Assembly: GCA_017504605.1 (NCBI GenBank)
Contig: JAFVQW010000001.1
Coordinates: 58,845-122,844, forward strand
DNA length: 64,000 nucleotides
DNA from: Clostridia bacterium
Lineage (GTDB): Bacteria; Bacillota; Clostridia; Oscillospirales; CAG-272
Direction: 5' to 3'
Shown: positions 5,081 through 57,443 of the stretch, piece after piece
Position numbering within the stretch: the stretch's first letter is position 1
How the letters are laid out: the number at the start of each line of letters is the position of its first letter
Notes under the pieces: generated by a model
Database searches by the model: none
What the model was told of the DNA's origin: nothing
The model's input: only the letters and a program-made list of their open reading frames with translations
Position numbers and translations under genes: made by a program

Positions 5081-5335
5081 AAAAAGCCCGAGACGGTTTA
5101 TCCTGACCGTCTCGGGGCGTAATTAACGCGGTACCACCCGATTTTCAGAGTGCACAGCACTCCCTCATCTCTCCCCATAACGCGGGGCGCGCCGAAGTCT
5201 AATAGGCCGAGGGCCGTTCTTTTCGGTGTAACACGGGCGACCTTCACGCGCCGACTGCAGAAGCTCTCACCTAACGCTTCCTCTCTTTGGCAGCAGCACA
5301 CGCTACTCCTCCCGTGCCTCTCTTTCGAGAACGAA
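5081..5335 (-). promoter_or_regulatory. T-box riboswitch leader with intrinsic terminator, controlling valS
   Basis: On the reverse strand the conserved T-box sequence AAUCGGGUGGUACCGCG lies at plus-strand 5127-5143. It is followed by a terminator stem CCCGAGACGG/CCGUCUCGGG (5087-5116) and a U-run. AGAGA/GGUGAGA stem-I distal motifs are present. Candidate Val specifier (GUC or GUG) lies in GCGUGAAGGUCGCC (5236-5249). Confidence 0.85.
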
Positions 5336-20314: not shown

Positions 20315-20348
20315 AAGAACAAGGCAACCTCGCGGTTGCCTTGTTCTT

Positions 20349-42740: not shown

Positions 42741-42763
42741 AAAACGACTTAATAATTCCCGGG

Positions 42764-42833
42764 TGCACAGAGCGGATTTTTTCCACTCTGTGCATTTTTT
42801 ACATTTTTGCCGCCCGAGGGGGCGGCTTTTTTT
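42764..42833 (+). terminator. two tandem intrinsic terminators after the ABC-F gene
   Basis: Hairpin 1: TGCACAGAG (42764-42772) pairs with CTCTGTGCA (42786-42794), followed by TTTTTT. Hairpin 2: GCCGCCC (42809-42815) pairs with GGGCGGC (42820-42826), followed by TTTTTTT. Confidence 0.8.
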
Positions 42834-42847
42834 GTCAGCCCTCTTTA

Positions 42848-42876
42848 CTTACAAAAGCCGCCCCGTGCTCTATAAT
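42848..42876 (+). promoter_or_regulatory. candidate promoter for the phage-like cluster
   Basis: CTTACA (42848-42853), a 17-nt spacer, then consensus TATAAT (42871-42876). It is the only promoter-like element between the terminators and the first cluster gene. Confidence 0.45.
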
Positions 42877-42944
42877 TGTAGGTGTCGGGAGGCCCCCGAG
42901 TGGCAAAAGGGGACAGGCTACGCACCCGACGGAATGAGGAGAAA

Positions 42945-43280
42945 ATGAAAAAAAGGGTAAGGTACAAAAGCGATTTGCCGCGGCTTATGTATACCTATTT
43001 TATCGGCTACTCCGAGGGGGGCGCACCGAGCTTTGACAAATTTGCGCGGAGCATCGGTCTTACCCTATCGGAGCTTGAGGAGTTCAAATCACACAGCGAG
43101 TTTCTTCGCGCCTGGCGGGAATGCAGCGAAATCCGAAGAGATTATCTTATTGACACAGCGCTGGCAAAGCGGGCAGATGCCTCTCTCGTGAAATTCCTTC
43201 TCACAGCCGAGTACGGTATGCGTGAGCCCGTGGCAGCCGAGGAAAGCACTGTCTCGGTGACGGTCGAGGTTGTGGAATGA
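42945..43280 (+). CDS. small terminase-like protein
   Basis: 111 aa from ATG 42945 behind a GAGGAG RBS. HTH-like segment (FARSIGLTLSELEEF) and a C-terminal LVKFLLTAEYGM typical of small terminases. ATGA overlap with the large terminase gene. Confidence 0.55.
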   Translation: MKKRVRYKSDLPRLMYTYFIGYSEGGAPSFDKFARSIGLTLSELEEFKSHSEFLRAWRECSEIRRDYLIDTALAKRADASLVKFLLTAEYGMREPVAAEESTVSVTVEVVE

Positions 43281-44641
43281 AGCTGCACCTCACCGTAACT
43301 AAAAAGCAAAAGCAGTTTATCGACGCCACCGAGAGCGAGGTGCTCTTCGGCGGGGCGGCGGGCGGGGGAAAGTCCTACGGACAGATTGTGGACGCGCTTC
43401 TCTTTGCGCTGAAATATCCGAGGTCGAAGCAGCTCGTTCTGCGACGCACCTTCGCCGAGCTCGATAAATCACTTATACGCTCGGTGCTCTCGCTCTATCC
43501 GCGAGAAATCTTTTCCTTTAATTCCTCCTCACATTCGGGCAAATTCAAAAACGGCTCCTGTATAGACTTCGGCTACTGTGCCGCGGAGAACGACGTATAT
43601 CAGTATCAAAGTGCGGAATACGACGTCGTCCGCTTCGACGAGCTGACACACTTCACCGAGGCGCAGTACGTCTATCTCATTTCGCGAGTGAGAGGGGCCA
43701 ACGGATACCCGAAGCAAATCAAATCCTCGACCAACCCCGGCGGCGTGGGGCACTCCTGGGTGAAGTCGAGGTTCGTCGACCCCGCAGAGCGTGGCGTGGG
43801 CTTCGTCGGGGGCGACGGAATGAGGCGGATTTTTATCCCCTCTCTTCTCTCGGACAACGGCTTCCTAAAAAGAGGCGACCCCGATTACGAAAAACGCCTC
43901 TTGGCTCTTCCCGAGCGGGAGAAGAAGGCACTGCTCTACGGTGACTGGAACATTTTTGAGGGACAGTATTTCACCGAGTTTTCAAGAGAGCGCCACGTTA
44001 TCCCGCCCTTCGAAATTCCGCCCTCGTGGCGAAAATACCGAACGCTCGATTACGGACTCGACCGCCTCGCGGTTCTCTGGATAGCGGTCGCCCCCGACGG
44101 TACGTCCTACGTATACAGAGAGCTGTGCGAGTCGAATCTTTCAATCAGCGCCGCCGCGCGTGCCATAGGCGAGCACACGCCGAGGGGAGAGGATATTTAC
44201 GCCACCCTCGCGCCGCCCGACCTATGGTCGCGCTCGCAGGAGACGGGCAGGACGAAGGCGGGGATTTTTTCCGAGCACGGAATTAACTTCACTAAAACCT
44301 CGAACGACAGAGAGACGGGGTGGCTGTCGGTAAAGGAGCTGCTCTCCGACAGTGAGGGGCGGCCGAGGCTTAAAATCTTCTCGCAGTGCACCGAGATTAT
44401 TAAATGCCTGCCCGCGCTCTCGATTGACAGAATACGCCCCACCGACTGCGCGACAGAGCCCCACGAAATCACACACGCCCCCGATGCTTTGCGCGGCTTT
44501 GCGATATTTTATACGAGGCCGAATTCACCCGTATGCGAGGTGAAGCGGCAAATCTGGACACCCGATATGTGGGAGGACTACCGCACGGCAGACGAGGAGG
44601 GCAAAAAATACCTAAAAGCTAAATACGGAGAACCAAAGTGA
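43277..44641 (+). CDS. terminase large subunit
   Basis: 454 aa. Walker A (FGGAAGGGKSYG), Walker B-like VVRFDELTH and a C-terminal nuclease-like region (DYGLDR...). Confidence 0.9.
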   Translation: MKLHLTVTKKQKQFIDATESEVLFGGAAGGGKSYGQIVDALLFALKYPRSKQLVLRRTFAELDKSLIRSVLSLYPREIFSFNSSSHSGKFKNGSCIDFGYCAAENDVYQYQSAEYDVVRFDELTHFTEAQYVYLISRVRGANGYPKQIKSSTNPGGVGHSWVKSRFVDPAERGVGFVGGDGMRRIFIPSLLSDNGFLKRGDPDYEKRLLALPEREKKALLYGDWNIFEGQYFTEFSRERHVIPPFEIPPSWRKYRTLDYGLDRLAVLWIAVAPDGTSYVYRELCESNLSISAAARAIGEHTPRGEDIYATLAPPDLWSRSQETGRTKAGIFSEHGINFTKTSNDRETGWLSVKELLSDSEGRPRLKIFSQCTEIIKCLPALSIDRIRPTDCATEPHEITHAPDALRGFAIFYTRPNSPVCEVKRQIWTPDMWEDYRTADEEGKKYLKAKYGEPK

Positions 44642-46422
44642 AAATTGAATATAAAGCGGAAAGAGAGCGCCTCGATTTCTTCAGGGCGCTCTACGCCGAT
44701 GCACTCTCGGCATACGCCGAGGAGCTCACGTCTCTTGAAAGATGCATGAAGCAGTATCGCGGCACCGATGAAATCGACGGCTCCGACACACGCGCCATCA
44801 CCGTAAGAAATATCACCTACGAAATAGTGGAGAGCCAGGTGCTCTCGGATATTCCCATGCCGAAGGCCGACCCCGCGTCGTACAGTGTACGGCGCTCGCG
44901 TAACGCCGAGAGCATAGAGCGGCTCTGCCGCTCGCTCCGAGACAGGCTCCCCTTCGAGGAGTTTAACGACATCGACGAGCGATACACCTACATATACGGC
45001 GGCAGCGTGTGGTATGCAGAGTGGGACAACTCCACCGAATACGACGGAGAGGTCGGCGGCGTGCGCGTTCACTGCATCTCGCCGAGAGACTTCCTCCCGC
45101 AGCCCGGAATTCACAAAATCGAGGATATGGAGTACTGCTTCCTGCGCTTCACCACCACTCGCGGGGAGCTCTCGCGTAAATACGGTGTGGACGGTGAGGA
45201 GGCGGCGCTCGCCGACCTCGAATACGAGTGGGGCGGTGAGGGAGATGCGGTCACGCTCACCCTCTGCTTCTACCGCGACGAGGACGGAGACATCGGAAGA
45301 TTTATCTTCTCGGGCGAGCTTACTCTCTCGGATATGCCGAAGTACTATATGCGAAAGGGCAGAGTCTGCTCTGTATGCGGCTCCGAGGCGGGGCTCTGCT
45401 CCTGCGTCGGCGCACACACGCTGACGAAGAACCTCACCTACGAGCTTATTCCCGAGGATATTATCCTCGGCGACGGCGCTACCCTGCCCGCCGACGCCCC
45501 AAGCCTTGACGGCGATAAAATCAAAATGGGGCGCTCGAGAATTCCCTATTACGTGCCCCGCTCCTTCCCTATAGTAATAAGGAAGAACACCTCGGGAGAA
45601 AAGAGCCTCTTCGGTCAGTCCGACTGCGACTACATACGCCCCGAGCAGCAGGCAATCAACAAAATCGAGTCGAGAATACTCGCGAAGCTGCTCCGCTCGG
45701 GAATTACACCTATAATGCCCGAGGATGCGAGCGTTACTCTCAACAACTCGGTCTTCGGCCAGGTGATAAAAATGAAGCCCGGGGAGAGCGCCGCACAGTA
45801 CGGAACCGTCGACACGACCCCCGACATCTCGCAGGACATCGCCGAGGCCGAGCGCCTCTACGACCACGCGAAAAGAATAATCGGTATATCCGATGCCTAC
45901 CAGGGAGTGGACACCCACAAAAGCGAGTCGGGCTATGCAAGACAGCTCAGGATTTCGCAGGCGAGCGGCCGACTTGAATCGAAGAAGCGAATGAAGCACA
46001 CCGCCTACGCCGCGCTCGACAAAATTATATTCGGGCTCTATCTTGCCTTTGCCGACGAGCCGAGAAAGCTCGCCTACCGCGATGCCTTCGGCACCGTACA
46101 CCCGACGGAATTCAACCGCTACGACTTTATCGAATACGACCTATACCGCGGAGAATTCTTCTACGACGACGGCTATCTGTTCTCGGTCGACCAGAACGGC
46201 GGCGCGGAGTACCAAAGAGAGGCGCTCTGGGAGAGAAATCTCGAAAATCTCAAGGCCGGCACGCTCGGTAACCCCGAGAGCCCCGCAACGCTTCTTCGCT
46301 ACTGGCAGAGCCAGGAGCGCGCACATTACCCCTACGCAAGGGAGAACGTCGAGTACTTCTCCCGTGCGCTCGAGGAGAAAGGAGTGGATATAAGCTATGA
46401 AGAGAACGAATTCAAGCCTTGA
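44638..46422 (+). CDS. portal protein with a Cys4 insertion
   Basis: 594 aa. GTGA overlap with the terminase gene and a GGAG RBS 7 nt upstream. Its size and position follow TerL. Portal-like core (SLFGQSDCDYIRPEQQAINKIESR). CSVCGSEAGLCSC lies at 45361-45411. Confidence 0.72.
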   Translation: MKIEYKAERERLDFFRALYADALSAYAEELTSLERCMKQYRGTDEIDGSDTRAITVRNITYEIVESQVLSDIPMPKADPASYSVRRSRNAESIERLCRSLRDRLPFEEFNDIDERYTYIYGGSVWYAEWDNSTEYDGEVGGVRVHCISPRDFLPQPGIHKIEDMEYCFLRFTTTRGELSRKYGVDGEEAALADLEYEWGGEGDAVTLTLCFYRDEDGDIGRFIFSGELTLSDMPKYYMRKGRVCSVCGSEAGLCSCVGAHTLTKNLTYELIPEDIILGDGATLPADAPSLDGDKIKMGRSRIPYYVPRSFPIVIRKNTSGEKSLFGQSDCDYIRPEQQAINKIESRILAKLLRSGITPIMPEDASVTLNNSVFGQVIKMKPGESAAQYGTVDTTPDISQDIAEAERLYDHAKRIIGISDAYQGVDTHKSESGYARQLRISQASGRLESKKRMKHTAYAALDKIIFGLYLAFADEPRKLAYRDAFGTVHPTEFNRYDFIEYDLYRGEFFYDDGYLFSVDQNGGAEYQREALWERNLENLKAGTLGNPESPATLLRYWQSQERAHYPYARENVEYFSRALEEKGVDISYEENEFKP

Positions 46423-47113
46423 GGACTTCCTCGAGAAGTATCTGAAGAATAAGTCTCTCTACGAGGGCGCCGACAGCTATGAGAGCTACGTCAGGAAAAA
46501 TGCCAAAAATCCGCGCACGGTATACGCCTCGGCTCTGCCCGAGCTCTATTCGAGCCGCGCGCGCTCGAGGGGTGGCTACGGCTCGAGCGCCGAGAGGCTT
46601 GCCGAGGCGGGCCTCTTCGGCAGCGGCTATCAGGAGCACCTCGAGCGCGCCGCCGAGAGAGAGCATAACGAGAGGCTCGACGAGCTCGAGCGGGATATGC
46701 GCGAGAGCGAGGACACCCTTCTCGGCGGCTACACCGCCTATCTCGATAAATACAAGTCGAGCCAGGAAAAGCTCTCGAAGAGCGTCAGCGACAAGATAGT
46801 TAGCACGGGCATTTTAAGCGAGGAGCGCGCCTACGAATACGCGAAGGAGGCGGGCCTCTCCGCCGAGCGTGCGCGGTCGGTGGCCGAGAGAGCCTCGCGC
46901 AGTGCAAAGGACAAGCTTATGCGCCGCATAATGCTCGAAATCCCCTATATGCAAATGGACGGAGAGGGCGCGCGGCTTTATGCGCTCAGCCTCGGTCTTG
47001 ACAGCAATTACGCCGAGCGCGCAAGGGAATACGCCGAGAGCCTGAGAGAGCACTACGACACCGTAGGCTCGTCCTATCTCGAGTATCTTGCAAGCAAGGG
47101 AAACCAATACTGA
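46397..47113 (+). CDS. highly charged helical protein, unknown function (head-internal or assembly candidate)
   Basis: 238 aa, rich in Glu, Arg and Lys. Its start is embedded 26 nt inside the portal 3' end. Confidence 0.5.
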   Translation: MKRTNSSLEDFLEKYLKNKSLYEGADSYESYVRKNAKNPRTVYASALPELYSSRARSRGGYGSSAERLAEAGLFGSGYQEHLERAAEREHNERLDELERDMRESEDTLLGGYTAYLDKYKSSQEKLSKSVSDKIVSTGILSEERAYEYAKEAGLSAERARSVAERASRSAKDKLMRRIMLEIPYMQMDGEGARLYALSLGLDSNYAERAREYAESLREHYDTVGSSYLEYLASKGNQY

Positions 47114-47134
47114 TTTTTTGAAAGGAACTAAAAA

Positions 47135-47275
47135 ATGAAGGATTACAAAAACCGCGACAAGAGTGCCCCCTATCGCACCAACAAGGGCGGCAAAATCTCC
47201 GCCCCCGTGGCACAGACCAACGAGCCGAGGTGCACCTCGGTCAAGGGTAAGGGCGACCTCAGAGGTGGCAAATGA
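47135..47275 (+). CDS. unlisted 46-aa basic ORF
   Basis: ATG 47135 follows GAAAGGAA. Translation MKDYKNRDKSAPYRTNKGGKISAPVAQTNEPRCTSVKGKGDLRGGK. Its stop overlaps ATG 47272. It is below the ORF-track size cut-off. Confidence 0.3.
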   Translation: MKDYKNRDKSAPYRTNKGGKISAPVAQTNEPRCTSVKGKGDLRGGK

Positions 47276-47751
47276 TGACTGATAAGACCGTTATCGAAAG
47301 CGAAGAGACCGAGAGGAGCGAAGCAGAGAGTGCCGCCGAGGTAAGCACCGACGGCGCACCCGAGGCCGAGAAGGAGACCGAGGGGGCCCCCGAAGAGAGC
47401 CCCGAGGAGAGCCCCGCCCCCATCGACTACGAGAGCGTAATCAAGGAGGATATCGCCCTTCTTCGGCGAACCTTCCCCGAGCTCTCGGGCATCTCCGATA
47501 TAACCGAGCTCGAGAACCCCTTAAGATACGCCGCTCTGCGCGACCTCGGCCTTACACCCGCCGAGGCCTATCTCGCCACCGAGAGGGGGCGTAGGGCCGA
47601 CACCCGCTCGCACCTTTTCGGTGCGGTGCCGAGAGGAGCGAGCAGTCCCTCGGGCTCTATGAGCCAGAAGGAGCTCGAGGGTGCACGCGAGATTTTCTCG
47701 GGAATGTCGGACGCCGACATTCAGAAGCTCTACCGCAAGGTTACGCTTTAA
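47272..47751 (+). CDS. scaffold-like protein
   Basis: 159 aa with a very acidic N-terminal half and a helical C-terminal half. Sits between the portal and capsid genes. Confidence 0.5.
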   Translation: MMTDKTVIESEETERSEAESAAEVSTDGAPEAEKETEGAPEESPEESPAPIDYESVIKEDIALLRRTFPELSGISDITELENPLRYAALRDLGLTPAEAYLATERGRRADTRSHLFGAVPRGASSPSGSMSQKELEGAREIFSGMSDADIQKLYRKVTL

Positions 47752-47767
47752 AAGAAAGGAGAACGAA

Positions 47768-48175
47768 ATGTTCAAGTTAGCTAAAATTTTAAACTCCGCA
47801 TCCAACGTGGTAGAGCCCTGCCGTATGCCGAGGGGAAAGGGCGCGAGCTACAGGCTCGGCTCACTCGCTCTCTTAAAATCGGGCGCTCTCGAAAATGCCG
47901 CGGCAACCGAGACCCCGACCTTCGTCATCGGTGAAAGCCTCACCGATGAGGCGGCCTCCACCGTGCTCTGCTACCCCATAAGCCCCGATATGATTTTCGA
48001 GGCCGTATGCAGCGGGGACCCCACGTCTCTCGTGCCCGGCGCGCGCGTTACGCTGAATATCGTTGACGGCTCCGCCGTCGGCGTTACCGCGAGCACCTCG
48101 GGGGGCGTGTGCGAAATCTTCAACCTCGGCGGCGCCAAAAACGTCGGCGACGCCGTATTCGTCAGAATAGTTTAA
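47768..48175 (+). CDS. small beta-rich capsid accessory protein (decoration/cement-like, by position)
   Basis: 135 aa from ATG 47768 behind AAAGGAGAA; the track ORF starts earlier, inside the previous gene. Lies immediately upstream of the capsid gene. Confidence 0.45.
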   Translation: MFKLAKILNSASNVVEPCRMPRGKGASYRLGSLALLKSGALENAAATETPTFVIGESLTDEAASTVLCYPISPDMIFEAVCSGDPTSLVPGARVTLNIVDGSAVGVTASTSGGVCEIFNLGGAKNVGDAVFVRIV

Positions 48176-48193
48176 TAAAAAGGAGAGTAAAAA

Positions 48194-49255
48194 ATGATAA
48201 TTTATTCCAAGTCCCAGGGACTTAACAACGCCGCCATAGGCAAGCTCGAAACGCCTATCAAAATGGTAATCGAGCACGAGAGCGACCTTCTCACAAAGAG
48301 GGGCGGCGTGTGCGACTGGCTCTTTAACGTCGAGAAGAGCGGCAAGTTCGGCGAGACCATAATCGGTCAGAACGAGTTTGACGTATTCAGAGCGGCAGAG
48401 GAGGGCGCGGGCGCCGAGAACGACACCATAAGCGAGACCTACCGCAAATTCATCGAGCACATTCAGTTTATGAAGGAGTTCACCATCACCGCCGAGATGA
48501 TGGAGGATGCGAACTACGGCGTGGCACAGGATGCCAAGCGCCGTGCCGAGAACTTCACGCGTGCATACTACAAGACTATGCACAAGATATGCGAGTACGC
48601 ACTTGCAAACGGTACACAAACCGACGGCACCTTCGCCAAGGCGACCCTCGACCTCACCGCCCCCGACGGCCTTCCCCTCTTCTCGGATTCTCACAAGTGG
48701 GGCGGCGGCAGCGGCAATACCGGCACGCAGTCCAACTACTTCTACGGCGACATCTTCAAGAGCGGAACGGGCAGTGCGAGAGTTGCCTCGACTGCGGCCT
48801 TTGAGGAGGCGCTCGGCGAGCTCGCCGTCAAGATGAGAAATCAGAAGGACGAGAACGGCGAGGTGCTCGGCTACACGGCTGACACCATCATTCTCCCCGG
48901 CAACAGACCCATAGCCGAGACCATTGTCAAGAAGGTATGCGGCTCCGAGGGCAGCCTTGGCGGCAGTCTCAACGACATCAACCTTCAGTTTGGCAACTGG
49001 AGCATAGTAATTATGCCCACCTGGCAGACCGAGGACGACAGAGTGATGATAATGTCGAGCGAGGCTAATAAGAACCTCTCGGGTAATATGTTCTTCAACC
49101 GCGTGCCTCTGACCGTTACGAGCTGGGTGGACAACCACACCGGCAACTACATTTGGAACGGCAGATGCCGCTTCGGCGTCGGCTTCGGCAACTATAAGCA
49201 CATTATGCTTGCCGTTGACTCCGAGAGCGCGGTTAGCGGCGCTTCCGCGATGTAA
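48194..49255 (+). CDS. major capsid protein (HK97-fold type expected)
   Basis: 353 aa behind an AGGAGAG RBS. Size, position and composition are typical of major capsid proteins, and the locus has a scaffold but no protease. Confidence 0.78.
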   Translation: MIIYSKSQGLNNAAIGKLETPIKMVIEHESDLLTKRGGVCDWLFNVEKSGKFGETIIGQNEFDVFRAAEEGAGAENDTISETYRKFIEHIQFMKEFTITAEMMEDANYGVAQDAKRRAENFTRAYYKTMHKICEYALANGTQTDGTFAKATLDLTAPDGLPLFSDSHKWGGGSGNTGTQSNYFYGDIFKSGTGSARVASTAAFEEALGELAVKMRNQKDENGEVLGYTADTIILPGNRPIAETIVKKVCGSEGSLGGSLNDINLQFGNWSIVIMPTWQTEDDRVMIMSSEANKNLSGNMFFNRVPLTVTSWVDNHTGNYIWNGRCRFGVGFGNYKHIMLAVDSESAVSGASAM

Positions 49256-49282
49256 ACAAACAATTACACGGAGGGCTTTGCA

Positions 49283-50116
49283 TTGACACTTAACGAATTG
49301 CAAAGAGAGGTTATGCACCTCGGCTTTGAAACACAAATTGAGGACACCGAGGCTCTTATCTCGGCAACCTCGCTCGCGCTCGGGCTGCTCTATACCGACA
49401 GGCCCGTAAAGAAGCGGCTCGAGCTCGCGGTGTGCCCCATAACGCCCCTATCCCGTGTCGAGAAAATAAGCCTTTCGGGAGGGGAAGAGGTAACTCTTCC
49501 CCTTTCGGGGCTTGCCTTTGCACTCGAGGTCTCGGGCTCGGGTAGGGTTGTCACCTTCGACGGCAAAATGAAAAAGGAGACCGAGCTTGATACCGAGCAC
49601 TCCCTGCTTCGCGGCAGGCTGTTCACAGAGGGAGAAATTACCCTTTATGCAAAGGGGCAGCTCACGGTATTCAATCTCGTTTGCTACCGCGAGAGCCTCG
49701 ACGAGAAGGACATTCCGCCCTTCTCGGTGACAAGGAGCATCAGCCTTTGCGATGCGGCGGAGGATTTTGCGGCGGCGCTCGCCCTGCCCCGCGATAGCTC
49801 GGGCCGCGAGATACCGGGAGCGGCGATTATCGGTGACACTCTCACTCTTCCCTCTGACTTCTTCGGCACCCTCTCGCTCCCCTATCGCGCACGCCCGCCG
49901 AAAAGAGAGGAGATTGCAAGAGGCGAGGAGCTTGCCGCCGACCCCGAGGCCGAGCATCTTCTGCCGCTCCTTACCGCTTCCTTCCTCTGGCTTGACGACG
50001 ATGATGAAAAGGCACGGTATTATATGTCGCTCTATCGCGATGCCCAAAGCACTATGCGCCGCTACGGCACGCACGCCGCCGCGGCGGAATATAAGACCGT
50101 GGACGGGTGGGCGTGA
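49283..50116 (+). CDS. head-tail adaptor-like protein
   Basis: 277 aa from TTG 49283, 7 nt after a GGAGGG RBS. The N- and C-terminal helical segments resemble head-tail connector proteins around a central insert. Function is inferred mainly from position. Confidence 0.45.
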   Translation: MTLNELQREVMHLGFETQIEDTEALISATSLALGLLYTDRPVKKRLELAVCPITPLSRVEKISLSGGEEVTLPLSGLAFALEVSGSGRVVTFDGKMKKETELDTEHSLLRGRLFTEGEITLYAKGQLTVFNLVCYRESLDEKDIPPFSVTRSISLCDAAEDFAAALALPRDSSGREIPGAAIIGDTLTLPSDFFGTLSLPYRARPPKREEIARGEELAADPEAEHLLPLLTASFLWLDDDDEKARYYMSLYRDAQSTMRRYGTHAAAAEYKTVDGWA

Positions 50117-52791
50117 TGGCAGTAAAGGGTTACGGAAGCAACACCGAATACACCCGCTCCTACCGCGGCTTCTCGGGCGTTATGCTCGGGGGCGGCAGCG
50201 TATCGAGCGGCAGGCTTGCCGAGGCGGTAAATATGTACCGCGACTACGACGGCGAGGGACAGAGCGTAATCGAGAGCGTGCCCGGCTACCGCCGCCTCTT
50301 TTCGGTCGGGGAGAGAATAAACGCTATCTATCTTTTCAAGACCTTCGAGGCGGGGGAGCTTCTCCTTATCCACGCGGGAGGCTCGCTCTACAGGTCTAAA
50401 ATATACTCAAAGGACCTGCCCGAGAAAATAGGCGAGATTTCCGACACGAGGAGCACGGGCTTTCCCTTCGGTGACTTCTTTTATATTCTTGACGGAAGTA
50501 AGATACTAAGGATTTCCCCCGCGGGAGAGGTACACGAGGTAGGCAGTGAGGGAGCCCCCGCCTACGTGCCCACGCTCTATCTGAACGGCTCGCCCTACGA
50601 GACGAGAAATCTCTTGACCGACAGCTTTATCGAGAAATACGAGGGCTACGATGCCGCGTCGTTAGCATACGGCACGCCCGAGCTTACCTACAGAATTACC
50701 GACCGCGACCTGTCTCTGTGCGAGGTCTCGGGAGTGGCCGAGGGCTTCACGGGCGCTATCTATGTGCCGGGCAGCGTAATTATCGGCGGCAGGCGCTATA
50801 CCGTCGCTAAGATAGGAAACTATGCCTTTAGGGACAACCTAAATATCACAGACGTTATTATCGGCGAGGGGGTAGAGGTCATAGGCAGACAGGCCTTCAC
50901 CCGAGCAACCGCTCTAAAGCGTGCAGTTATCGCAGGCAGTGTACACGAAATTCAGTACGGCGCCTTCCACGGCTGCTCGGTAATGAACGAGCTCTTCGTC
51001 GGCGCGGGAATGAAGACTGTCGGAGAGGAGGCTATTACCTCCTGCTACTCGCTCGATAGCGTTTTCTTCGGCGGTGACGAGCGCGCCTTCTCCGAGATTT
51101 CGGGCTCCGAGCATCTGTCGATAAAGGAAATAGCCTACGACACGCACTATACCGCAGTGCGTATAGAGCTCCCGCTTCACGCCGATGCAATATCGGTGGA
51201 GCGGCTCACCGTTGGAGATGCTGATACCGAATTCGAGACGGTATACGATGCCGACCGAGTGAAAAGCATTATTCTCGATATAGACACACCCGAGGAAATA
51301 AACAACAAAGCGCTTGCCGTATACGGCACCGAGCGTCCGCTCTACAGCTCCTTCTCGGCCTCCGCCACGGACAGCGAGGACGGGAAAATACGCGGCACCG
51401 ATGCAATCCTACACTGCCGCACGGCCGAGCTCTTCGACGGGCGTGTATTCCTAACGGGTAACGATGCGCTCTCGAACACCGTCTTCTTCTCGGCAAGAGA
51501 CAAGAGCGGAAGAAGCACTCCGCTATACTTCGGCGCGCTGAACTACTTTAACGACGGCGTGGGAAAATATCCCGTAACGGCCCTGCTCTCCGTGCGCGAC
51601 ACGCTCGCAGTCTTCAAGTCGGGGGACGACGGCTCGGGAAGCATATTCTACCACACCCCCGCCGACACGGGTGACGACCTTATGCCGAGAATATATCCCG
51701 TATCCTCGGTACACTCGGGGCTTTGCGCCCTTGGGGGAGCCTGCAACTTCCTCGACGACCCCGTATTTCTCTCGGTGCTCGGTCTCTCGGCGCTCGAGAG
51801 GCAGCCGATAAGCCTCGAGCGGAGCATCGCGGTACGCTCTCATAATGTAAACCTTGATTTACTTAAAGAGGACTTGAGCTCTGCCTCGCTCGTTGAATGG
51901 CTGGGGTATCTTTGTATAGGCGTCGGGGGCAATATTTATCTTGCCGACTCGCGCAGCACCTTCCTACACGAGACGGGCAGCCGTGAGTACGAATGGTTCG
52001 TTATGAAGGGGGTAGGCACCTATAGCGATGCCGCGCGCGGCTTCCGCTTTGACAGCAGCTCACCCCGCGAGGACGTGCTCGTTCACGAGCTGGCCGAGAG
52101 CGTGTGTCGGGGAACGGTTTTTTCGACGAGCGATGAATTAGGCAGCTACAGCTTCTGTGTGATAGACGGACAGCGCTATGCGGTCTACCCGACAGGCGAG
52201 AGCGTGGGCGGAGATTTTTATCCCGCGAGAACGCTCTTCAGCGACGGACGGCTTCTCCTTTTCGGTAACGACCGCGGAGACGTGTGTATTTTCAATAACG
52301 ACATGCGCGGAGTTGCGCCCGAGAGAATAAGCACCAAGGCCGACTTTGACGAAAAGAGCTATAAGGCGAGAATGGGCAGCAGAATTCACCCCGACTTCTA
52401 TTCCTTCGACGGACACGCTCCGACCTACCTTATCAAAACCGCCTTCGACGACTGCAATATTCCCCACCTCGCAAAGAGTACGGTAAAGCACTCGCTCGTA
52501 ATCAAGTGTAAAAGCTACACGGGTACCCACGTCAGCCTCTCTGTAGGCACCGACAGGCGCGGATTTACCGAGCCTCTTTATCTGCCGGGCGGAGAGCTCG
52601 ATTTCGACCAGCTTGATTTTTCCTCCCTTACCTTCTTCTTCGGAGACTACTTCTCGCTCCCCGTCAATGAAAAGGAAAAGAATTGGGTCGAAAAGCAAAT
52701 CGCGATATCCTCCGACGGCTTCGCCTCGCCGATAGGAATTTACTCGATAACCTACCGCTACACGGTTAAGGGCAAGATTAAGCGGAGCTGA
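50116..52791 (+). CDS. large tail protein (nozzle/tail-hub candidate) with an embedded LRR_5-type repeat block
   Basis: 892 aa from ATG 50116 (TGATG junction). The LRR block at ~50690-51120 reads YTVAKIGNYAFRDNLNITDVIIGEGVEVIGRQAFTRATALKRAVIAGSVHEIQYGAFHGCSVMNELFVGAGMKTVGEEAITSCYSLDSVFFGG. The rest is beta-rich. Confidence 0.6.
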   Translation: MAVKGYGSNTEYTRSYRGFSGVMLGGGSVSSGRLAEAVNMYRDYDGEGQSVIESVPGYRRLFSVGERINAIYLFKTFEAGELLLIHAGGSLYRSKIYSKDLPEKIGEISDTRSTGFPFGDFFYILDGSKILRISPAGEVHEVGSEGAPAYVPTLYLNGSPYETRNLLTDSFIEKYEGYDAASLAYGTPELTYRITDRDLSLCEVSGVAEGFTGAIYVPGSVIIGGRRYTVAKIGNYAFRDNLNITDVIIGEGVEVIGRQAFTRATALKRAVIAGSVHEIQYGAFHGCSVMNELFVGAGMKTVGEEAITSCYSLDSVFFGGDERAFSEISGSEHLSIKEIAYDTHYTAVRIELPLHADAISVERLTVGDADTEFETVYDADRVKSIILDIDTPEEINNKALAVYGTERPLYSSFSASATDSEDGKIRGTDAILHCRTAELFDGRVFLTGNDALSNTVFFSARDKSGRSTPLYFGALNYFNDGVGKYPVTALLSVRDTLAVFKSGDDGSGSIFYHTPADTGDDLMPRIYPVSSVHSGLCALGGACNFLDDPVFLSVLGLSALERQPISLERSIAVRSHNVNLDLLKEDLSSASLVEWLGYLCIGVGGNIYLADSRSTFLHETGSREYEWFVMKGVGTYSDAARGFRFDSSSPREDVLVHELAESVCRGTVFSTSDELGSYSFCVIDGQRYAVYPTGESVGGDFYPARTLFSDGRLLLFGNDRGDVCIFNNDMRGVAPERISTKADFDEKSYKARMGSRIHPDFYSFDGHAPTYLIKTAFDDCNIPHLAKSTVKHSLVIKCKSYTGTHVSLSVGTDRRGFTEPLYLPGGELDFDQLDFSSLTFFFGDYFSLPVNEKEKNWVEKQIAISSDGFASPIGIYSITYRYTVKGKIKRS

Positions 52792-52813
52792 TTAAAAAAG
52801 AAAGGAAAGAAAA

Positions 52814-53281
52814 ATGAATATTCAACCTATTTCGGACAGTGAAATATCGGCACTGAAGGTGTCATCACTGCCCACAAGGCCTACCGCCCCCGCCGCCTTC
52901 GGCGGGCGCGGCTATACCGCGAGCGAGATGAAGGCGGCGTTTGATATGCTCCCGCTTTTCATAATCGAGCGCCTGAACGCGCTCATCGCCTATTTAAAAT
53001 CCGAGCCCGACGACTACTCCGTCGCAAGGGATATTCTGACGGGCCTCTCGGAGGGGCACACGCTCTACGACCTCTTCGGCGAAATCCGCGAGGGCTCGCT
53101 CGGTGACAGGCTCTCGGTGCTCGGCGAGGCACTGCCCTCGGCCCTCACGGATATAAGGCTCGAGCTCGCGGACCTCGACAAAAAAATCGAGTCGGCCTCG
53201 GGAGAAATCGACAATCTTTTGCTCGATGCCGGCGGCCCCGCCGATATGCTCGAGATAGAGGAAGGGGGGAGTGAGGAATGA
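52814..53281 (+). CDS. fibre-associated coiled-coil protein, unknown function
   Basis: 155 aa. N-terminal LPTRPTAPAAFGGRGYTASEMKAAFD, then helical heptad-like sequence and an acidic tail. ATGA overlap with the next gene. Confidence 0.5.
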   Translation: MNIQPISDSEISALKVSSLPTRPTAPAAFGGRGYTASEMKAAFDMLPLFIIERLNALIAYLKSEPDDYSVARDILTGLSEGHTLYDLFGEIREGSLGDRLSVLGEALPSALTDIRLELADLDKKIESASGEIDNLLLDAGGPADMLEIEEGGSEE

Positions 53282-53745
53282 AATGCTTAATGCAGCAGCT
53301 CCGCGGAACGAGTGACGAATGGCAACAGAACGACAGAGTTATTCCCGCGGGTACCATTGCCCTTCTTGACGACGGTGACGGCCGCTTCTCGGTAAAGATA
53401 GGAGACGGCGAGAGAGCCTTCTCGGCCCTGCCCTTCCTCGGCTCGAGGGTTAAGAGCACGAGTGAGGTAAACATTCTGCTCGAGCGAGCAGACGACGTTC
53501 GGTACGGAGTAATGACCGAAATTAACGTATCCTTCCCCGACCCGATAGAGGAGGATTATTACGCTACGCTCTGCTTCGACACGAACGACGAGGGAACTAT
53601 GCTTTCGGTTCCCGAAGAGGTGCGCTGCGCGGGCAGCTCCTGCTACTCGGGCTACTTCTATCCCGACTTCAACTGTCACTATACCCTCGTATTCTGGTAC
53701 GACGGGGCTATTCAGTGCACGGTGAGGGGCGTGTACCATGAATAG
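53278..53745 (+). CDS. tail-fibre protein with a HylP/Mtd-type N-terminal motif
   Basis: 155 aa. LRGTSDEWQQNDRVIPAGTIALLDDGDGRFSVKIGDGERAFSALPFL matches the conserved phage hyaluronidase/tail-fibre N-terminus (R.S..EW....vl..GEig.e.D.g..KiGDG...fs.L.yl). Confidence 0.6.
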   Translation: MKCLMQQLRGTSDEWQQNDRVIPAGTIALLDDGDGRFSVKIGDGERAFSALPFLGSRVKSTSEVNILLERADDVRYGVMTEINVSFPDPIEEDYYATLCFDTNDEGTMLSVPEEVRCAGSSCYSGYFYPDFNCHYTLVFWYDGAIQCTVRGVYHE

Positions 53746-54961
53746 GCGTATTCTCAGTGCGGTTTTAAGCAGTGTCGATAAGGCCCCCACCTCCTCGACG
53801 GGTCTCGGCATCGTTACCTACACCGCCGAGGACGGCGGCTCACTGCGTAGCGTAACGGTTATCGGCAATACGGTGGCGAGCGTTAGTAACCCCGTATACC
53901 CCACCGTTGCCACGTATACGCACGCGGGCGACCCCGTTACCCTCGACGACGGCACGACGGGCTACCGCTTCAACCTGAGAATTCACGGCGCGAACTTCCT
54001 CGATGCCGACGAGTTTCTCAGAATATGCCGCATACTGCGCCCCGATATGATAGCAGATGAGGACGAGGAATTCTTCTACCTCAATTGCCCCGCGGCAACC
54101 GAGCCCATCGACCTTGTGACCAATTCCTACGTTGCGCTCGCAAAGACACAGTACACCTTCCGCGCGGGCGCCATAGCCGAGGGCAGAGTTATCGGCGGTG
54201 TCTTTAACTTCAATCTTCAGATGTCGCACGTGGAGAGCTCGAGAATCTACTCCTACAAGGCCTCGGGTGCCACCGAGGGAGTTAACCATATAGCGGTCGT
54301 GGGCCTGCCCTACGACACCCCGCGAGCACTTCAGTACGTATATTCCAACAAGATTATGCCGATAATCGCCTTTGAGAAGAAGAGCTTCGGCATATTCCAG
54401 GGATACAATCCAACAGTGCTCGAGAGCGTGGAGAAATACCGCGGCATAAGCGCCGAGCTTATTCTCAGCGAGCCCCTGCGCTCGTTTAAGGGGGCCTCGG
54501 AAACGGTTGCCGACGAATACTCGCTCGGCACGGGCAAAATTGTTCGCTACGTACGCGAGATGCAGCTCGACCGCCGCGTATACCTCTACCTTATGACCTA
54601 TAAGGAAACGCGGATTTATTACGCCGTAATAAAGAGCGAGCCCGCCGTGGCAAGCGGCCCCGCCGCCGCGAGCTGCCTCAAGAGCGTGAGGAACCTCGAC
54701 GCGCTCGTCGGAACGACCTACAGCTGCTGTGTGAGCAGCAGCGGCTGGCACTTCTATTTCACGCTCTCCGACGACTACACCACGGCGGACGAGGCTATGG
54801 ATTTCATCACCGCGCATCCGATAACCGCCTTCTATAAGAGAGCAACGCCCGTATATGAGGATGCAAAGAGGGTGGCGCCGGTGTCCTACCGCGGCGAGGT
54901 CAACGTAGAGGCGGCCTCGGTAAACCGCCCCTACGTCAAGGCAGAATATATCCAACCATAA
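53738..54961 (+). CDS. putative distal fibre / receptor-binding protein
   Basis: 407 aa, beta-rich. 8-nt overlap with the fibre N-terminal gene. Function is inferred from position. Confidence 0.5.
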   Translation: MNRRILSAVLSSVDKAPTSSTGLGIVTYTAEDGGSLRSVTVIGNTVASVSNPVYPTVATYTHAGDPVTLDDGTTGYRFNLRIHGANFLDADEFLRICRILRPDMIADEDEEFFYLNCPAATEPIDLVTNSYVALAKTQYTFRAGAIAEGRVIGGVFNFNLQMSHVESSRIYSYKASGATEGVNHIAVVGLPYDTPRALQYVYSNKIMPIIAFEKKSFGIFQGYNPTVLESVEKYRGISAELILSEPLRSFKGASETVADEYSLGTGKIVRYVREMQLDRRVYLYLMTYKETRIYYAVIKSEPAVASGPAAASCLKSVRNLDALVGTTYSCCVSSSGWHFYFTLSDDYTTADEAMDFITAHPITAFYKRATPVYEDAKRVAPVSYRGEVNVEAASVNRPYVKAEYIQP

Positions 54962-54982
54962 AGCAAGGAAAGGAAAAAAGAA

Positions 54983-55210
54983 ATGTACGCAAAATTAAAC
55001 GAAGACGGCACGCTTTCCACAATCTCGGGGCGGCTTATTAAGGTCGCGGGCAGAGCCATAACCAACCCAACGCCCGAGCTCCTTCGGGCATCGGGGTATA
55101 AGCCGCTCGTCCCCGACGAGCCGCCCGAAATTCCCGGCGAGGTGCATAACGCATACTACGAGGAAACCGAAGACGAGATAAGGCTCGTTTTCGAGAAGGA
55201 GGAGCAGTGA
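54983..55210 (+). CDS. small fibre-adjacent protein (possible assembly chaperone)
   Basis: 75 aa. MYAKLNEDGTL...NPTPELLRASGYKPLV resembles small proteins commonly encoded beside Firmicute phage fibres. The assignment is weak. Confidence 0.4.
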   Translation: MYAKLNEDGTLSTISGRLIKVAGRAITNPTPELLRASGYKPLVPDEPPEIPGEVHNAYYEETEDEIRLVFEKEEQ

Positions 55211-55599
55211 CGGTATTAAATTACACGGTATCGGACGGCTACGGAGAGATAAGCTCCTTCGTCGGCGGCGGTGGCCGCGCGGTATTTAAAATAGACGGTG
55301 CGGCGGGCGGCGTGCTCCACGTCGGGCGGCTCTGTGCCCCGATTATCGACGGGCGCTGTGAGATAAATCTCAGCAAGCTCCCCGACGGCGACTACACCCC
55401 GATAATATCCGTAAAATCGAGGGGCATAGAGCTCGAGGGGATACGCAAGTTCGGCAGAGAGCTTCTCCCCCTGCCCACCTCTGAAAAAACGCTAAGACGG
55501 CTGATTAGCCGTGTGGCAAAATTAGAGGACAGGCTCGGCCGTGCCGAGGCGGAAATCGCCGCGCTTTCCGAAAAAATCGCGCGCGGCTTAACGTTCTGA
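55207..55599 (+). CDS. hypothetical protein with a C-terminal coiled coil
   Basis: 130 aa. GTGA overlap with the upstream gene. C-terminus LRRLISRVAKLEDRLGRAEAEIAALSEKI. Confidence 0.45.
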   Translation: MTVLNYTVSDGYGEISSFVGGGGRAVFKIDGAAGGVLHVGRLCAPIIDGRCEINLSKLPDGDYTPIISVKSRGIELEGIRKFGRELLPLPTSEKTLRRLISRVAKLEDRLGRAEAEIAALSEKIARGLTF

Positions 55600-55616
55600 A
55601 AGAAAGGAAACAACAA

Positions 55617-56228
55617 GTGAAAAGAAACAAGAAAACTCTACTGATAAGCATTTTAATCATCGCTCTTCTGTGCCTTTTCTCCGCCTCGGCCTACGCCGCC
55701 GAGGAGGAGAGCCCGGAGAGCGTGACGGGGGCGGCAGAAGCCGAGGAGAGCCCCTTCTCGGTTATCTTCGAGGCCGTCAGCGAATACGCAACGGAAATAT
55801 TCTGTGCCCTCTCCTTTATCGGCTCTCTTATTCTCTCCTTCGCATATAAAAAGGGGCTGTTGCCACTCTTACGCGGAGCCCTGACGAGCCTCGGCGGCAC
55901 GGTTGGCAAGCTAAGCGAGAACGTCGAGAGCGAGAGCGAGAAGAATAAGGAGCTCTGCCTCGCGCTCAGCTCGGGCCTCGAGCGTGCCGAGAGTGTCATC
56001 GAAAGGACGGACGAGGGAATGAAAAAAATCGCCGAGCGCCTCGATGCGCTTAGCGAGGATGCGGGCGAGCGGGAGCGCTTCAACACCGTTATGCGGGAGC
56101 AGGTAGAGCTGCTCTACGACGTCTTTATGTCCTCGTCTCTTCCTCAGTACAAGAAGGACGAAATAGGCGAGCGTGTCGCAAAAATGAGAATGGAGCTTTC
56201 GGAAAATGAAGCGGCAGACAAAGAGTAA
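55617..56228 (+). CDS. secreted or membrane protein with one extra TM helix and a long coiled coil
   Basis: 203 aa from GTG behind AAAGGAAA. Signal peptide (LLCLFSASAYAAEE), a second hydrophobic helix (IFCALSFIGSLILSFAY) and a charged helical C-terminal half. Confidence 0.5.
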   Translation: MKRNKKTLLISILIIALLCLFSASAYAAEEESPESVTGAAEAEESPFSVIFEAVSEYATEIFCALSFIGSLILSFAYKKGLLPLLRGALTSLGGTVGKLSENVESESEKNKELCLALSSGLERAESVIERTDEGMKKIAERLDALSEDAGERERFNTVMREQVELLYDVFMSSSLPQYKKDEIGERVAKMRMELSENEAADKE

Positions 56229-56580
56229 GAGCCTCGCCCTTCGCGCTCTCGGTATGCTTCTTTGCACCCTTCCTCCCGCCCTGGCGACCGTCAGCTTCTT
56301 TCCCCTCTGGATGTCAAGAGGAAGTGAGAGCGTGCTCTCGGGCTTTACCGTGCTCCTGCTTGCAATATGCGCGCTACCTCTTTGGCGCGCCCTGAAAAGG
56401 CTTCTCTCCTCGCCGAGCATACATACCGTGTGGCTTATTTTCTTTCTGTGCTTTCTCCTGCTCTCGAAAATTGCAGACGAGATGACGGTTATAGGCTTCG
56501 TCGGCTTTATATCGAGCTCGCTCGGCGCGATTTGCTTTCATTTCGCGCGGCGCGGGGAAGATAGCGAGGGGGCGGAATGA
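56206..56580 (+). CDS. small polytopic membrane protein (holin-like size, 3-4 TM)
   Basis: 124 aa, basic N-terminus followed by hydrophobic helices. Overlaps the upstream gene by 23 nt. Confidence 0.5.
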   Translation: MKRQTKSKSLALRALGMLLCTLPPALATVSFFPLWMSRGSESVLSGFTVLLLAICALPLWRALKRLLSSPSIHTVWLIFFLCFLLLSKIADEMTVIGFVGFISSSLGAICFHFARRGEDSEGAE

Positions 56581-57443
56581 AAAACGACTTTGAGGCCTCA
56601 CTCATCAAGAGCGGCGAGATAATTAAGCGCGGCGCAGGGACCCTGCTCGAAAACCTCGGCAAGATAATCGCGCTCCTGACGGCCATTATTGCCGCTCTCG
56701 TAATATTTACCGAGATAAGCTTCTCGGGCTTCGGCACCGAGCGCGTAACCACGACCCTCTTCGTCATTCTCGGCGCATCCTACATAATCTACTTTTCTCT
56801 TGAGGATGCGGGCGAGCGTGCGGCAAGGTCGTCGGAGAGCTATATAGCTGTGAGCGAGGAGTACCGCTCGCGGCGCGAGAAAATACGCGGCGAGGATATA
56901 GAGGAGCTACGTGCCTTTTGCTCGGAATATACCGAGCGGGAGCTCGAATACAGGCGGCGCGAATTCCTTTTCGCACACGGCCTCGGCCCCGGGGGCTACT
57001 CCGAGTATCTCTCGGGTAAGGACTGTCGGCGCAGCGAGCGGCGCATATATAAGCGGGCGCGGGCCCTGCGCCCCGTGCCCCTGACCCCCGCGGCACTTCT
57101 CTCCGACGAGCGCGGGGGCGGAAGGAGCGAGCTTCGCTCGCCCGAGGGGGATAAGCTCCTGCGCTTCACCCTGCGCCTAATTCCGACCACGCTCTGTATG
57201 ATTTTCACGGTGTCGGTGGCTCTTAATCTGCGCGACGGGCTGACTGCCGAGAGCATTATCGAGGGTGTCCTTAAGCTCTCAACTCTGCCGCTTGCGGCAT
57301 ATAAGGGCTACACGGGCGGCTGGGGCTACGTAAGCGGGCCTCTCTCGGACTGGCAGAGGACCCGTGCCGATATTCTCGATGCATTTCTGGGGAGAAAATG
57401 TAAACAAGAGCTTACACCCGTATTTTTATCCTCCGAAACTTGA
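56577..57443 (+). CDS. membrane protein with two TM pairs and a large basic cytoplasmic loop
   Basis: 288 aa. ATGA overlap behind a GAGGGGG RBS. TM helices LLTAIIAALVIF and TLFVILGASYIIYF, plus later hydrophobic segments. Confidence 0.55.
   Translation: MKNDFEASLIKSGEIIKRGAGTLLENLGKIIALLTAIIAALVIFTEISFSGFGTERVTTTLFVILGASYIIYFSLEDAGERAARSSESYIAVSEEYRSRREKIRGEDIEELRAFCSEYTERELEYRRREFLFAHGLGPGGYSEYLSGKDCRRSERRIYKRARALRPVPLTPAALLSDERGGGRSELRSPEGDKLLRFTLRLIPTTLCMIFTVSVALNLRDGLTAESIIEGVLKLSTLPLAAYKGYTGGWGYVSGPLSDWQRTRADILDAFLGRKCKQELTPVFLSSET

Follow-up and report, generated by a model that had tools for sequence, protein, structure and literature searches.

A conserved podovirus-type structural operon in gut Clostridia: a candidate gene-transfer-agent-like system

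The 64,000-nucleotide stretch of contig JAFVQW010000001.1 (positions 58,845 to 122,844; GenBank assembly GCA_017504605.1, a Clostridia bacterium of the CAG-272 lineage) that was analysed here, and that we call the window, holds a single uninterrupted operon of about 14.6 kb (42846-57443 of the window, all open reading frames (ORFs) on the + strand) with genes for terminases, a portal, a major capsid protein and a podovirus-type tail nozzle. We think it likely that this operon goes back to a short-tailed temperate phage of Clostridia that was domesticated long ago, and that it has been passed on vertically since. It would then be a viriform resembling gene transfer agents (GTAs), known from its genes alone; we regard it as a strong GTA candidate rather than a dead prophage. 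A previous sequence-only reading of the window had also preferred a domesticated, host-controlled particle locus to an inducible prophage or a prophage remnant, and this preference is supported by intact synteny, by co-divergence with the host and by a GC content that tracks that of the host. Its further statement that no established GTA of Clostridia has a podovirus-like architecture is outdated, since such a system, FpGTA of Faecalibacterium prausnitzii, was published in 2026 (Borodovich et al., Nat Commun 2026, PMC12946183).

Relatives of the capsid protein were retrieved as 1668 clusters (90% identity) at E<=1e-5. The best 120 of them are 80-90% identical to the protein of the window, and 23 of these lie on contigs of 50-359 kb, which points to a chromosomal location. 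With one genome scanned per species, a close capsid relative occurs in at least 136 species genomes, the carriers being metagenome-assembled genomes (MAGs) labelled Clostridia, Eubacteriales, Oscillospiraceae or Ruminococcus and coming from ruminant and human guts. We fetched 80 of these loci, each extending 10 kb from the capsid gene in both directions; their capsids are 73-85% identical to that of the window (73-90% over all comparisons). The gene order from TerS (the small terminase subunit) to the last gene, g17 (Table 1), is colinear in the fetched loci, and the helicase gene that follows g17 in the window does so in every locus extending that far. The same ABC-F gene as in the window lies directly upstream in 27 species, and in 22 of the 27 the distance from its stop codon to the gene for TerL (the large terminase subunit) is 570-870 bp, which corresponds to TerS plus the intergenic region. 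The junction between the ABC-F and helicase genes, which the sequence-only reading had proposed to compare across related genomes, is thus the same throughout a large subclade, where the cluster is conserved under purifying selection.

Signs of decay were looked for and none was found, the cluster being colinear and intact in 80 of the 80 species genomes examined. A single ORF with at least 85% coverage was present for TerL in 58 of 60 loci, for the portal in 60 of 67, for the capsid in 78 of 79 and for the nozzle in 66 of 71. Synonymous differences have reached saturation both within the cluster and in its flanks (pS 0.67-0.76), while the proportion of non-synonymous differences (pN) amounts to 0.147 for the capsid, 0.231 for TerL, 0.237 for the ABC-F flank, 0.30 for the portal, 0.36 for the helicase flank and 0.48 for the nozzle; the capsid and TerL thus stand at or below the level of the ABC-F gene, and dN/dS ratios are upper bounds, dS being saturated. 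Distances between species follow those of the ABC-F gene (Mantel r 0.81 for TerL, 0.85 for the portal, 0.75 for the capsid, 0.85 for the nozzle and 0.85 for g17; all p<=0.0005), and the GC content of the cluster tracks that of its flanks over a range of 41-62% (r=0.94, n=60). Recent horizontal spread is therefore very unlikely. An ordinary remnant of a prophage, in which a structural module survived deletion and drifts neutrally, would account for a locus of structural genes only, lacking integrase, replication and lysis genes. Against it stand genes that are intact in about 80 species, with a pN of 0.15-0.30 despite saturated synonymous sites, co-divergence with the flank, full GC amelioration and a conserved promoter, and a protein divergence of 20-50% among the 80 loci that excludes recent transfers of one element. 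Intactness, pN relative to pS, co-divergence and GC tracking together exclude a decaying remnant, and we give this explanation next to no weight.

The promoter itself is among the conserved features. Upstream of TerS, 31 species and one additional locus (L049) share the signature TACTTAC-N16-18 followed by a TATAAT-like -10 element, often preceded at a distance of 9-10 nt by TTTGGAA, while the intergenic sequence around it has diverged and synonymous sites between these species are saturated. When both strands of the 80 loci (1.4 Mb, or 2.8 Mb over the two strands) were searched, the composite motif occurred 33 times, in 32 cases upstream of TerS; measured from TerL, 31 of these 33 sites are 300-750 nt upstream and one is 763 nt upstream. 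In the 64-kb window the motif is unique. Its T-rich part may simply be the tail of the ABC-F terminator, whereas the invariant and unusual -35 element, TACTTAC, suggests a dedicated host factor. A regulator gene is absent from the operon, and LexA or Spo0A boxes were not seen upstream of TerS. The motif is also absent from a divergent subclade of carriers, where no other shared motif was found in its place.

Genes for mobility, replication or lysogeny were not found. The 64-kb window has no tRNA genes, att-like direct repeats flanking the cluster were not found, nor were clean att junctions, and integrase, serine recombinase, Erf, exonuclease, primase and amidase sequences taken from phage relatives gave no tblastn match in the window. 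Likewise, none of the 80 loci, over the 10 kb covered to the left and right of the capsid gene, shows an integrase, att repeats or a tRNA target, the integrase search of the flanks being a single-sequence tblastn of limited sensitivity. The absences listed in the sequence-only reading (integrase, repressor, replication genes, peptidoglycan hydrolase, repeats, tRNA target) accordingly agree with negative Pfam, tblastn, repeat and tRNA searches, and its judgement by eye that codon style and base composition resemble the flanks is borne out by computation, the GC content of the cluster and that of its third codon positions (GC3) being equal to those of the flanks.

Free phages with a related module exist at a considerable distance. 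The annotated phage collection holds only two relatives, both unannotated fragments of human-faecal viromes with 25-34% identity, one of them MT836833; this GenBank entry and MT837280 are uncultured podophages that carry the module. Contigs of 35-58 kb in IMG/VR (L141, L152, L158 and L162) present the order TerL, portal, scaffold, g6, capsid, g8 and nozzle at 26-44% identity. Such relatives encode an exonuclease, Erf, a DnaD-like protein, a primase/helicase, an amidase endolysin or a tyrosine integrase; a primase is present on the 34-36-kb contigs L151 and L158. In MT836833.1 (9662-10774; L081), listed as 'Bacteriophage sp.' from human faeces, a distant head-tail module is followed directly after the tail genes by a tyrosine integrase, and phages of this type are likely the kind of temperate ancestor from which the operon came. 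Their nozzles are shorter (620-780 aa) and lack the insert described below. Contigs with a capsid of the phage lineage reach about 43 kb at most, whereas the conserved element itself appears in IMG/VR only as fragments of 4.5-17 kb, with no complete genome. Intermediates between the two were not seen: capsids of the chromosomal element share 73% identity or more with that of the window, those of the phages 40% or less. Close relatives of the cluster joined to integrase, replication or lysis modules were not encountered either; the only relatives that are complete phages stand at 26-44% identity. The membrane-protein genes g15-g17 occur in all subclades of the chromosomal element and were not detected in the phage relatives, which favours a single domestication that preceded the radiation of the clade. 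A different set of IMG/VR contigs (L101-L139, 30-46 kb) has only TerL (42-69%) and the portal (43-48%) in common with the cluster, followed by quite different downstream genes, which shows that the packaging module is exchanged in mosaic fashion. Three of them with TerL at 60-69% identity (L101, L104 and L137) were considered as a link to FpGTA and set aside, as only TerL and the portal are shared; L101, with a large serine recombinase upstream and a 2597-aa protein downstream, is a different type of phage.

Several observations weigh against a GTA-like operon inherited vertically from one ancestor. By eye, TerS seems to retain a helix-turn-helix-like (HTH-like) N-terminal region, unlike the TerS proteins of FpGTA and of the alphaproteobacterial RcGTA, which are reported to be deficient in DNA binding, and packaging could thus be site-directed. 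The operon and the window contain, according to family searches, no endolysin and no recognisable holin, which leaves the release of particles unexplained. The divergent subclade holds the cluster at another chromosomal site, itself conserved in four species. One locus (L042; JAXEKG010000003.1, 9246-20995) is rearranged, with TerS and TerL placed after g16 (19451-20995), and a portal was not found ahead of g5; this order could result from a translocation of the packaging genes or represent a permuted copy, and together with the differing sites it could also stem from repeated insertions. As a separate observation, relatives of the ABC-F gene at 50% identity or less on metagenome contigs have no cluster downstream, and these may be paralogues or belong to other lineages; among the matches listed, the ABC-F scan of metagenome contigs gave one further occupied site (L165).

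The differing sites and the rearranged locus are also what a still-mobile element would produce, be it a capsid-forming satellite or a temperate podophage of minimal size that inserts beside the ABC-F gene and depends for integration and replication on functions provided in trans or located elsewhere. The distant relative MT836833, with its integrase next to the tail genes, fits this explanation, as does the MAG JAZRQS01, in which the cluster occurs twice on separate contigs (L029 on contig 17 and L068 on contig 36, with capsids 80% and 76% identical to that of the window); either two strains or species were binned together here, or the loci are paralogous. Mobility is nevertheless very improbable in our judgement: integrase, att repeats and tRNA targets were not found in the window or within 10 kb of the capsid gene in the fetched loci, distances and GC content follow the host, viral-contig collections hold fragments and no complete genome, and the operon encodes a tail nozzle of its own, unlike capsid-forming satellites.

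The functions of the operon's genes were assigned by profile searches, structure prediction and position (Table 1). For both terminases and the portal, the sequence-only reading is confirmed by clear PHROGs and Pfam matches. TerS most likely starts at the ATG at 42946 behind a GAGGAG ribosome-binding site, with a GTG at 42882 as alternative; alignments with orthologues start near residues 13-34 of the long ORF. In TerL, the Walker A, Walker B, coupling and nuclease acidic motifs have the same core residues in 59 of 59 orthologues. The major capsid protein, also proposed before, adopts the HK97 fold according to an AlphaFold2 (AF2) model (pLDDT 76.9) that gave 386 Foldseek matches in the PDB at E<=0.001; among the 50 listed, nearly all are HK97-fold capsids of phages or GTAs or encapsulin shells, with HK97, T5, the RcGTA capsid (6tb9) and SU10 at 1e-9 to 1e-12. 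Sequence profiles support this protein weakly; its fold assignment comes from the model. Sequence searches against solved structures gave no match for the portal, the capsid or g8, and nine head and tail proteins had no informative NCBIfam match. The earlier labels of scaffold-like protein, capsid accessory and adaptor-like protein derive from position and from same-position homologues in phage relatives: g4 keeps its place across species at 24-36% identity, g5 is present in 79 loci with a median identity of 44%, and homologues of g6 (in L141, L162 and L081) and of g8 occupy equivalent positions in the phage relatives. A prohead protease was not recognised in the operon.

The large tail protein, given as 892 aa in the earlier reading, turns out to be a podovirus tail nozzle. 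Its AF2 model (pLDDT 88.3) matched the nozzles of cyanophage A4, LME-1, Carin-1, SU10, T7 (gp12) and P22 (gp10, 8eap) in Foldseek at 4e-18 to 1e-9, chain 8eap_D scoring 2.5e-13; this fold is generic to podoviruses. In a sequence search of solved structures the protein was matched only through its insert of BspA-type leucine-rich repeats (LRRs), which is missing or swapped in some homologues (P0189-P0222) and may be a swappable receptor-binding module. The window encodes a second BspA-type protein with an LRR_5 match (1520-2479, - strand, 1.2e-55), and this family is common in the host and thus a possible source of the insert. Downstream of the nozzle, g10 was found in 62 loci at 29-80% identity, and g12-g14 occur only in some species, at 23-44% identity. 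The fibre module proposed for this region rests on the weak tail-fibre match of g11, whose N-terminus also resembles weakly that of a phage-type hyaluronidase fibre (6x3m), while g12-g14 match no family; against solved structures, sequence searches with g11 and g12 gave weak matches only (E >= 0.28). A tape measure, tube or sheath was not recognised in the operon. As an addition to the earlier reading, the three terminal genes encode integral membrane proteins with two, four and three predicted transmembrane (TM) segments; g15 is kept in 59 loci, g16 in 59 at 30-57% identity and g17 in 52. They match no Pfam or PHROGs family, and g16 matches no holin family; release, passage of the envelope and immunity are candidate roles for the three.

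Table 1. Features of the operon and its upstream border (positions in the window)
Feature	Position	Strand	Basis
Upstream ABC-F gene	40824-42740		Pfam ABC_tran x2, ABC_tran_Xtn
Two intrinsic terminators closing ABC-F	42763..42833	+	scan plus reading of sequence
Operon promoter	42846..42876	+	scan; TACTTAC(A) (also CTTACA) at -35, 17-nt spacer, TATAAT
TerS, ~111 aa	42946..43280	+	phrog_3064 terminase 1.6e-10; weak GP3_package match
TerL (packaging ATPase and nuclease)	43277..44641	+	phrog_979 1e-43; Pfam Terminase_3, Terminase_6N
Portal, SU10-like	44638..46422	+	phrog_156 1.3e-28; SU10_portal PF23899, 31 bits
g4, 238 aa, helical, charged; candidate scaffold or internal protein	46397..47113	+	position; no family match
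46-aa basic ORF, reality uncertain	47135..47275	+	gene in public records
g5, 158-159 aa, acidic N-terminus; candidate scaffold-like protein	47272..47751	+	no family match
g6, 135 aa, directly 5' of capsid gene; candidate decoration or accessory protein	47768..48175	+	phrog_24113 3.7e-9
Major capsid protein, HK97 fold	48194..49255	+	phrog_371 9.5e-7; Phage_capsid_4 PF25209 (precomputed)
g8, 277 aa; candidate head-to-tail adaptor	49283..50116	+	between capsid and nozzle; no family or PDB match
Tail nozzle, 891 aa, BspA-type LRR insert (residues ~210-330)	50116..52791	+	AF2 and Foldseek; LRR_5 5e-13
g10, 155 aa; tail-associated, moderately conserved	52814..53281	+	no family match
g11, 155 aa, tail-fibre-type N-terminal domain	53278..53745	+	phrog_19976 2.5e-4, phrog_6049 (tail) 3.7e-3
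g12 (407 aa), g13 (75 aa), g14 (130 aa); variable distal tail/fibre module	53738..55599	+	no family match
g15, 203 aa; signal/TM, second TM, coiled-coil tail	55617..56228	+	two hydrophobic segments
g16, 124 aa, four TM; holin-like by size and topology only	56206..56580	+	TM prediction
g17, 288 aa, three TM; final gene of the operon	56577..57443	+	TM prediction

As a mechanism we propose that the conserved, non-canonical host promoter (TACTTAC-N17-TATAAT) would drive a single transcript of about 14.5 kb, that procapsids would be built from the portal, the scaffold-like proteins and the HK97-fold capsid protein, and that TerS and TerL would load them with DNA. The adaptor, nozzle and fibres would then complete podovirus-like particles; the membrane proteins g15-g17 may serve release or passage of the envelope, possibly with a hydrolase encoded elsewhere, and the particles would carry host fragments to related cells. 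Because the locus is unable to replicate or excise, the host chromosome would be the DNA available for packaging. A hallmark of GTAs is a capsid whose capacity is smaller than their own locus; the capacity of the present capsid, like particle production, packaging of host DNA, the route of release and delivery, is something we infer from the genes.

The conservation evidence would fit equally well a domesticated particle put to another use, such as a PBSX-like killer (bacteriocin) or a device for lysis or DNA release, in which DNA is packaged incidentally and selection acts on the killing of competitors or on some other interaction at the cell surface. The distal tail and fibre genes and the LRR insert of the nozzle evolve fastest or get swapped, as in receptor arms races, and the authors of the FpGTA study leave such a role open for their own system (PMC12946183). 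TerS, TerL and the portal are nevertheless among the best-conserved genes, and this constraint, together with the invariant motifs of the TerL ATPase and nuclease, indicates that DNA packaging itself is under selection; family searches, moreover, revealed no toxin or hydrolase domain on any tail protein. A use other than DNA transfer thus appears unlikely to us, although it is the main rival as to function and keeps more weight than either a remnant or a mobile element.

Among known systems FpGTA, the first GTA of podovirus type to be reported from a gut Clostridium, is the closest in kind. Its operon I (10.5 kb) encodes TerS, TerL, a portal, a Prp-like protein, a capsid of the N4-gp56 family, an 8eap-like nozzle and a TolA-like protein, the latter an abundant structural protein, and operon II (5.5 kb), 125 kb away, encodes fibres, a receptor-binding protein, a holin and an endolysin; particles of 40 nm carrying 8.4-8.9 kb of host DNA were shown experimentally (PMC12946183). 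Both systems are chromosomal and structural-only, open with TerS, TerL and portal ahead of the head genes, have a nozzle of the P22-gp10/T7-gp12 type and lack replication and integration genes. FpGTA is near-ubiquitous in its host group, to which we liken the present locus with its counted carriers in at least 136 species. It is therefore a fair question whether the locus is simply an orthologue of FpGTA and hence already described: both are podovirus-like elements of gut Clostridia with the series TerS-TerL-portal, capsid and nozzle spread over some 10 kb, and both nozzles match P22 gp10 (8eap). The differences, which derive from the annotations and descriptions of the FpGTA proteins RCH50844-RCH50853 rather than from alignment, speak against this. 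The FpGTA capsid (RCH50849.1) belongs to the N4-gp56 family, whereas that of the window is a Phage_capsid_4 protein without any NCBIfam capsid match at E<=1 (an indirect comparison); FpGTA has Prp-like and TolA-like genes, whereas g4, g5 and g6 match neither in Pfam, NCBIfam or PHROGs, the Prp-like and N4-gp56 comparisons with the window being negative at E<=1. FpGTA occupies two loci and includes holin and endolysin genes, whereas the window shows neither gene and has a single 14.6-kb locus, with the fibre module contiguous with the head genes and three conserved membrane proteins at the end instead. FpGTA is restricted to one genus, and its authors found no homologues outside Faecalibacterium, even in sister genera (PMC12946183), whereas the present locus spans at least 136 species with 41-62% GC. 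Particles and DNA were demonstrated for FpGTA; the locus is known from its genes. Orthology with FpGTA is thus rather unlikely, and the locus probably constitutes a distinct family, set apart by annotations and descriptions and much more widespread. Tentatively, we put forward as a serious possibility that it stems from an independent podovirus domestication, older and wider than that of FpGTA, and would be a second Gram-positive GTA family, fixed before the radiation of a large clade of uncultured Clostridia from gut and rumen, with a dedicated promoter, presumably a dedicated regulator, and a novel three-protein membrane module in place of holin and endolysin; it may then be the missing cluster behind the packaging of 4-10-kb fragments in uncultured Clostridia.

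To our knowledge, well-characterised GTAs are almost only Alphaproteobacterial. The locus resembles RcGTA in its vertical inheritance, host-like GC content, putative control by a host promoter and absence of phage regulatory and replication genes, in purifying selection being strongest on TerL, portal and capsid, and in its capsid fold, the RcGTA capsid (6tb9) being one of the HK97 folds matched. RcGTA differs in being siphovirus-like, with a tape measure and a tube, in having several loci and unrelated sequences, in hosts that belong to another phylum, and in its already known lysis genes and regulators (CtrA, GafA). PBSX and PBSZ of Bacillus, which package host DNA and cannot propagate, are likewise chromosomally fixed loci for phage-like particles in Gram-positive bacteria, yet PBSX has a myovirus-like contractile tail, retains lysis genes along with a repressor, responds to SOS induction, kills as a particle and is confined to a few species. 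Capsid-forming phage-inducible chromosomal islands are also small loci with TerS, TerL, portal and capsid; they carry an integrase and replication genes, lack a tail and vary between strains, whereas the present locus is fixed, has no integrase and includes nozzle and fibre genes. Inducible temperate prophages possess an integrase together with att sites or a tRNA target, as well as modules for repressor/Cro, replication and lysis, none of which was found at the locus, and they are patchy and uncoupled from the host, whereas here distances and GC content follow it. The free podophage relatives, finally, share the order of the module, but g15-g17 were not detected in them, and they do have replication, lysis or integrase genes.

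The borders of the operon are sharp. As read earlier, it starts after two terminators of the ABC-F gene, of which the first hairpin (about 42763-42800, gtgcacagagcgg...ccactctgtgcatttttt) was read from the sequence and the second, with its T-run (42809-42833), was found by the terminator scan, and after a TATAAT promoter. Its last gene stops at 57443, and 52-70 bp further, again in line with the earlier reading, begins a DinG/Rad3-type helicase gene (Pfam DEAD_2 and Helicase_C_2) with its own promoter (TTGATT-17-TATAAT). The co-directional train of genes stands. Where 19 ORFs had been counted, an independent gene caller, used for a public record that starts inside TerL, gives 17 genes, including the 46-aa ORF, or 18 with TerS. 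The NCBI protein records for the DNA of the window, which belongs to a 129-kb contig, are MBR23427xx, with MBR2342712-MBR2342728 for TerL to g17. The gene junctions were found as listed before, with ATGA at 43277, 53278 and 56577, GTGA at 44638 and 55207, TGATG at 50114-50118 and longer overlaps at 46397, 53738 and 56206; only the supposed longer overlap at 47272 amounts to a few bases, the 46-aa ORF stopping at 47275 and g5 starting at 47272 or 47275. The + strand has an AT skew of 0.17-0.22 over the head genes (44000-49000), against about 0.0-0.1 in the flanks, the coding strand being A-rich.

Elsewhere in the window, sizeable ORFs with a Pfam match are nearly all housekeeping genes, the sole exception being the LRR protein at 1520-2479, and six ORFs have no Pfam match. 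The neighbours include ValRS, ThiI, RuvX, QueA, DapA, RF2, RsmF, a PcrA/UvrD helicase, LspA and RluD, the YggS-SepF-YggT-YlmH region, an ABC transporter, PNP, a class II aminoacyl-tRNA synthetase and a MiaB-like enzyme. A T-box leader (98 bits; 5110-5328, - strand) upstream of the ValRS gene (2421-5051) is unrelated to the operon, and Rfam gave no match inside the cluster.

GTA-type packaging of 4-10-kb host fragments to which no gene cluster has been assigned was reported for the uncultured Clostridia CAG-115, Onthomonas, UBA11524, UBA1829, UBA1206, HGM11616, QANA01 and UMGS856 (PMC12946183). A structurally complete particle operon that selection maintains in at least 136 species would be a concrete genetic candidate for such packaging in uncultured Clostridia, and the range of GTA-like systems would grow to take in much of the Clostridia that live in ruminant and human guts. 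Its free phage relatives, its conserved promoter and its modules, some conserved and others variable, would make it a comparative system for the passage from phage to host organelle. Should the particles indeed transfer DNA, genes would flow through gut communities by a major route that has so far gone unrecognised.

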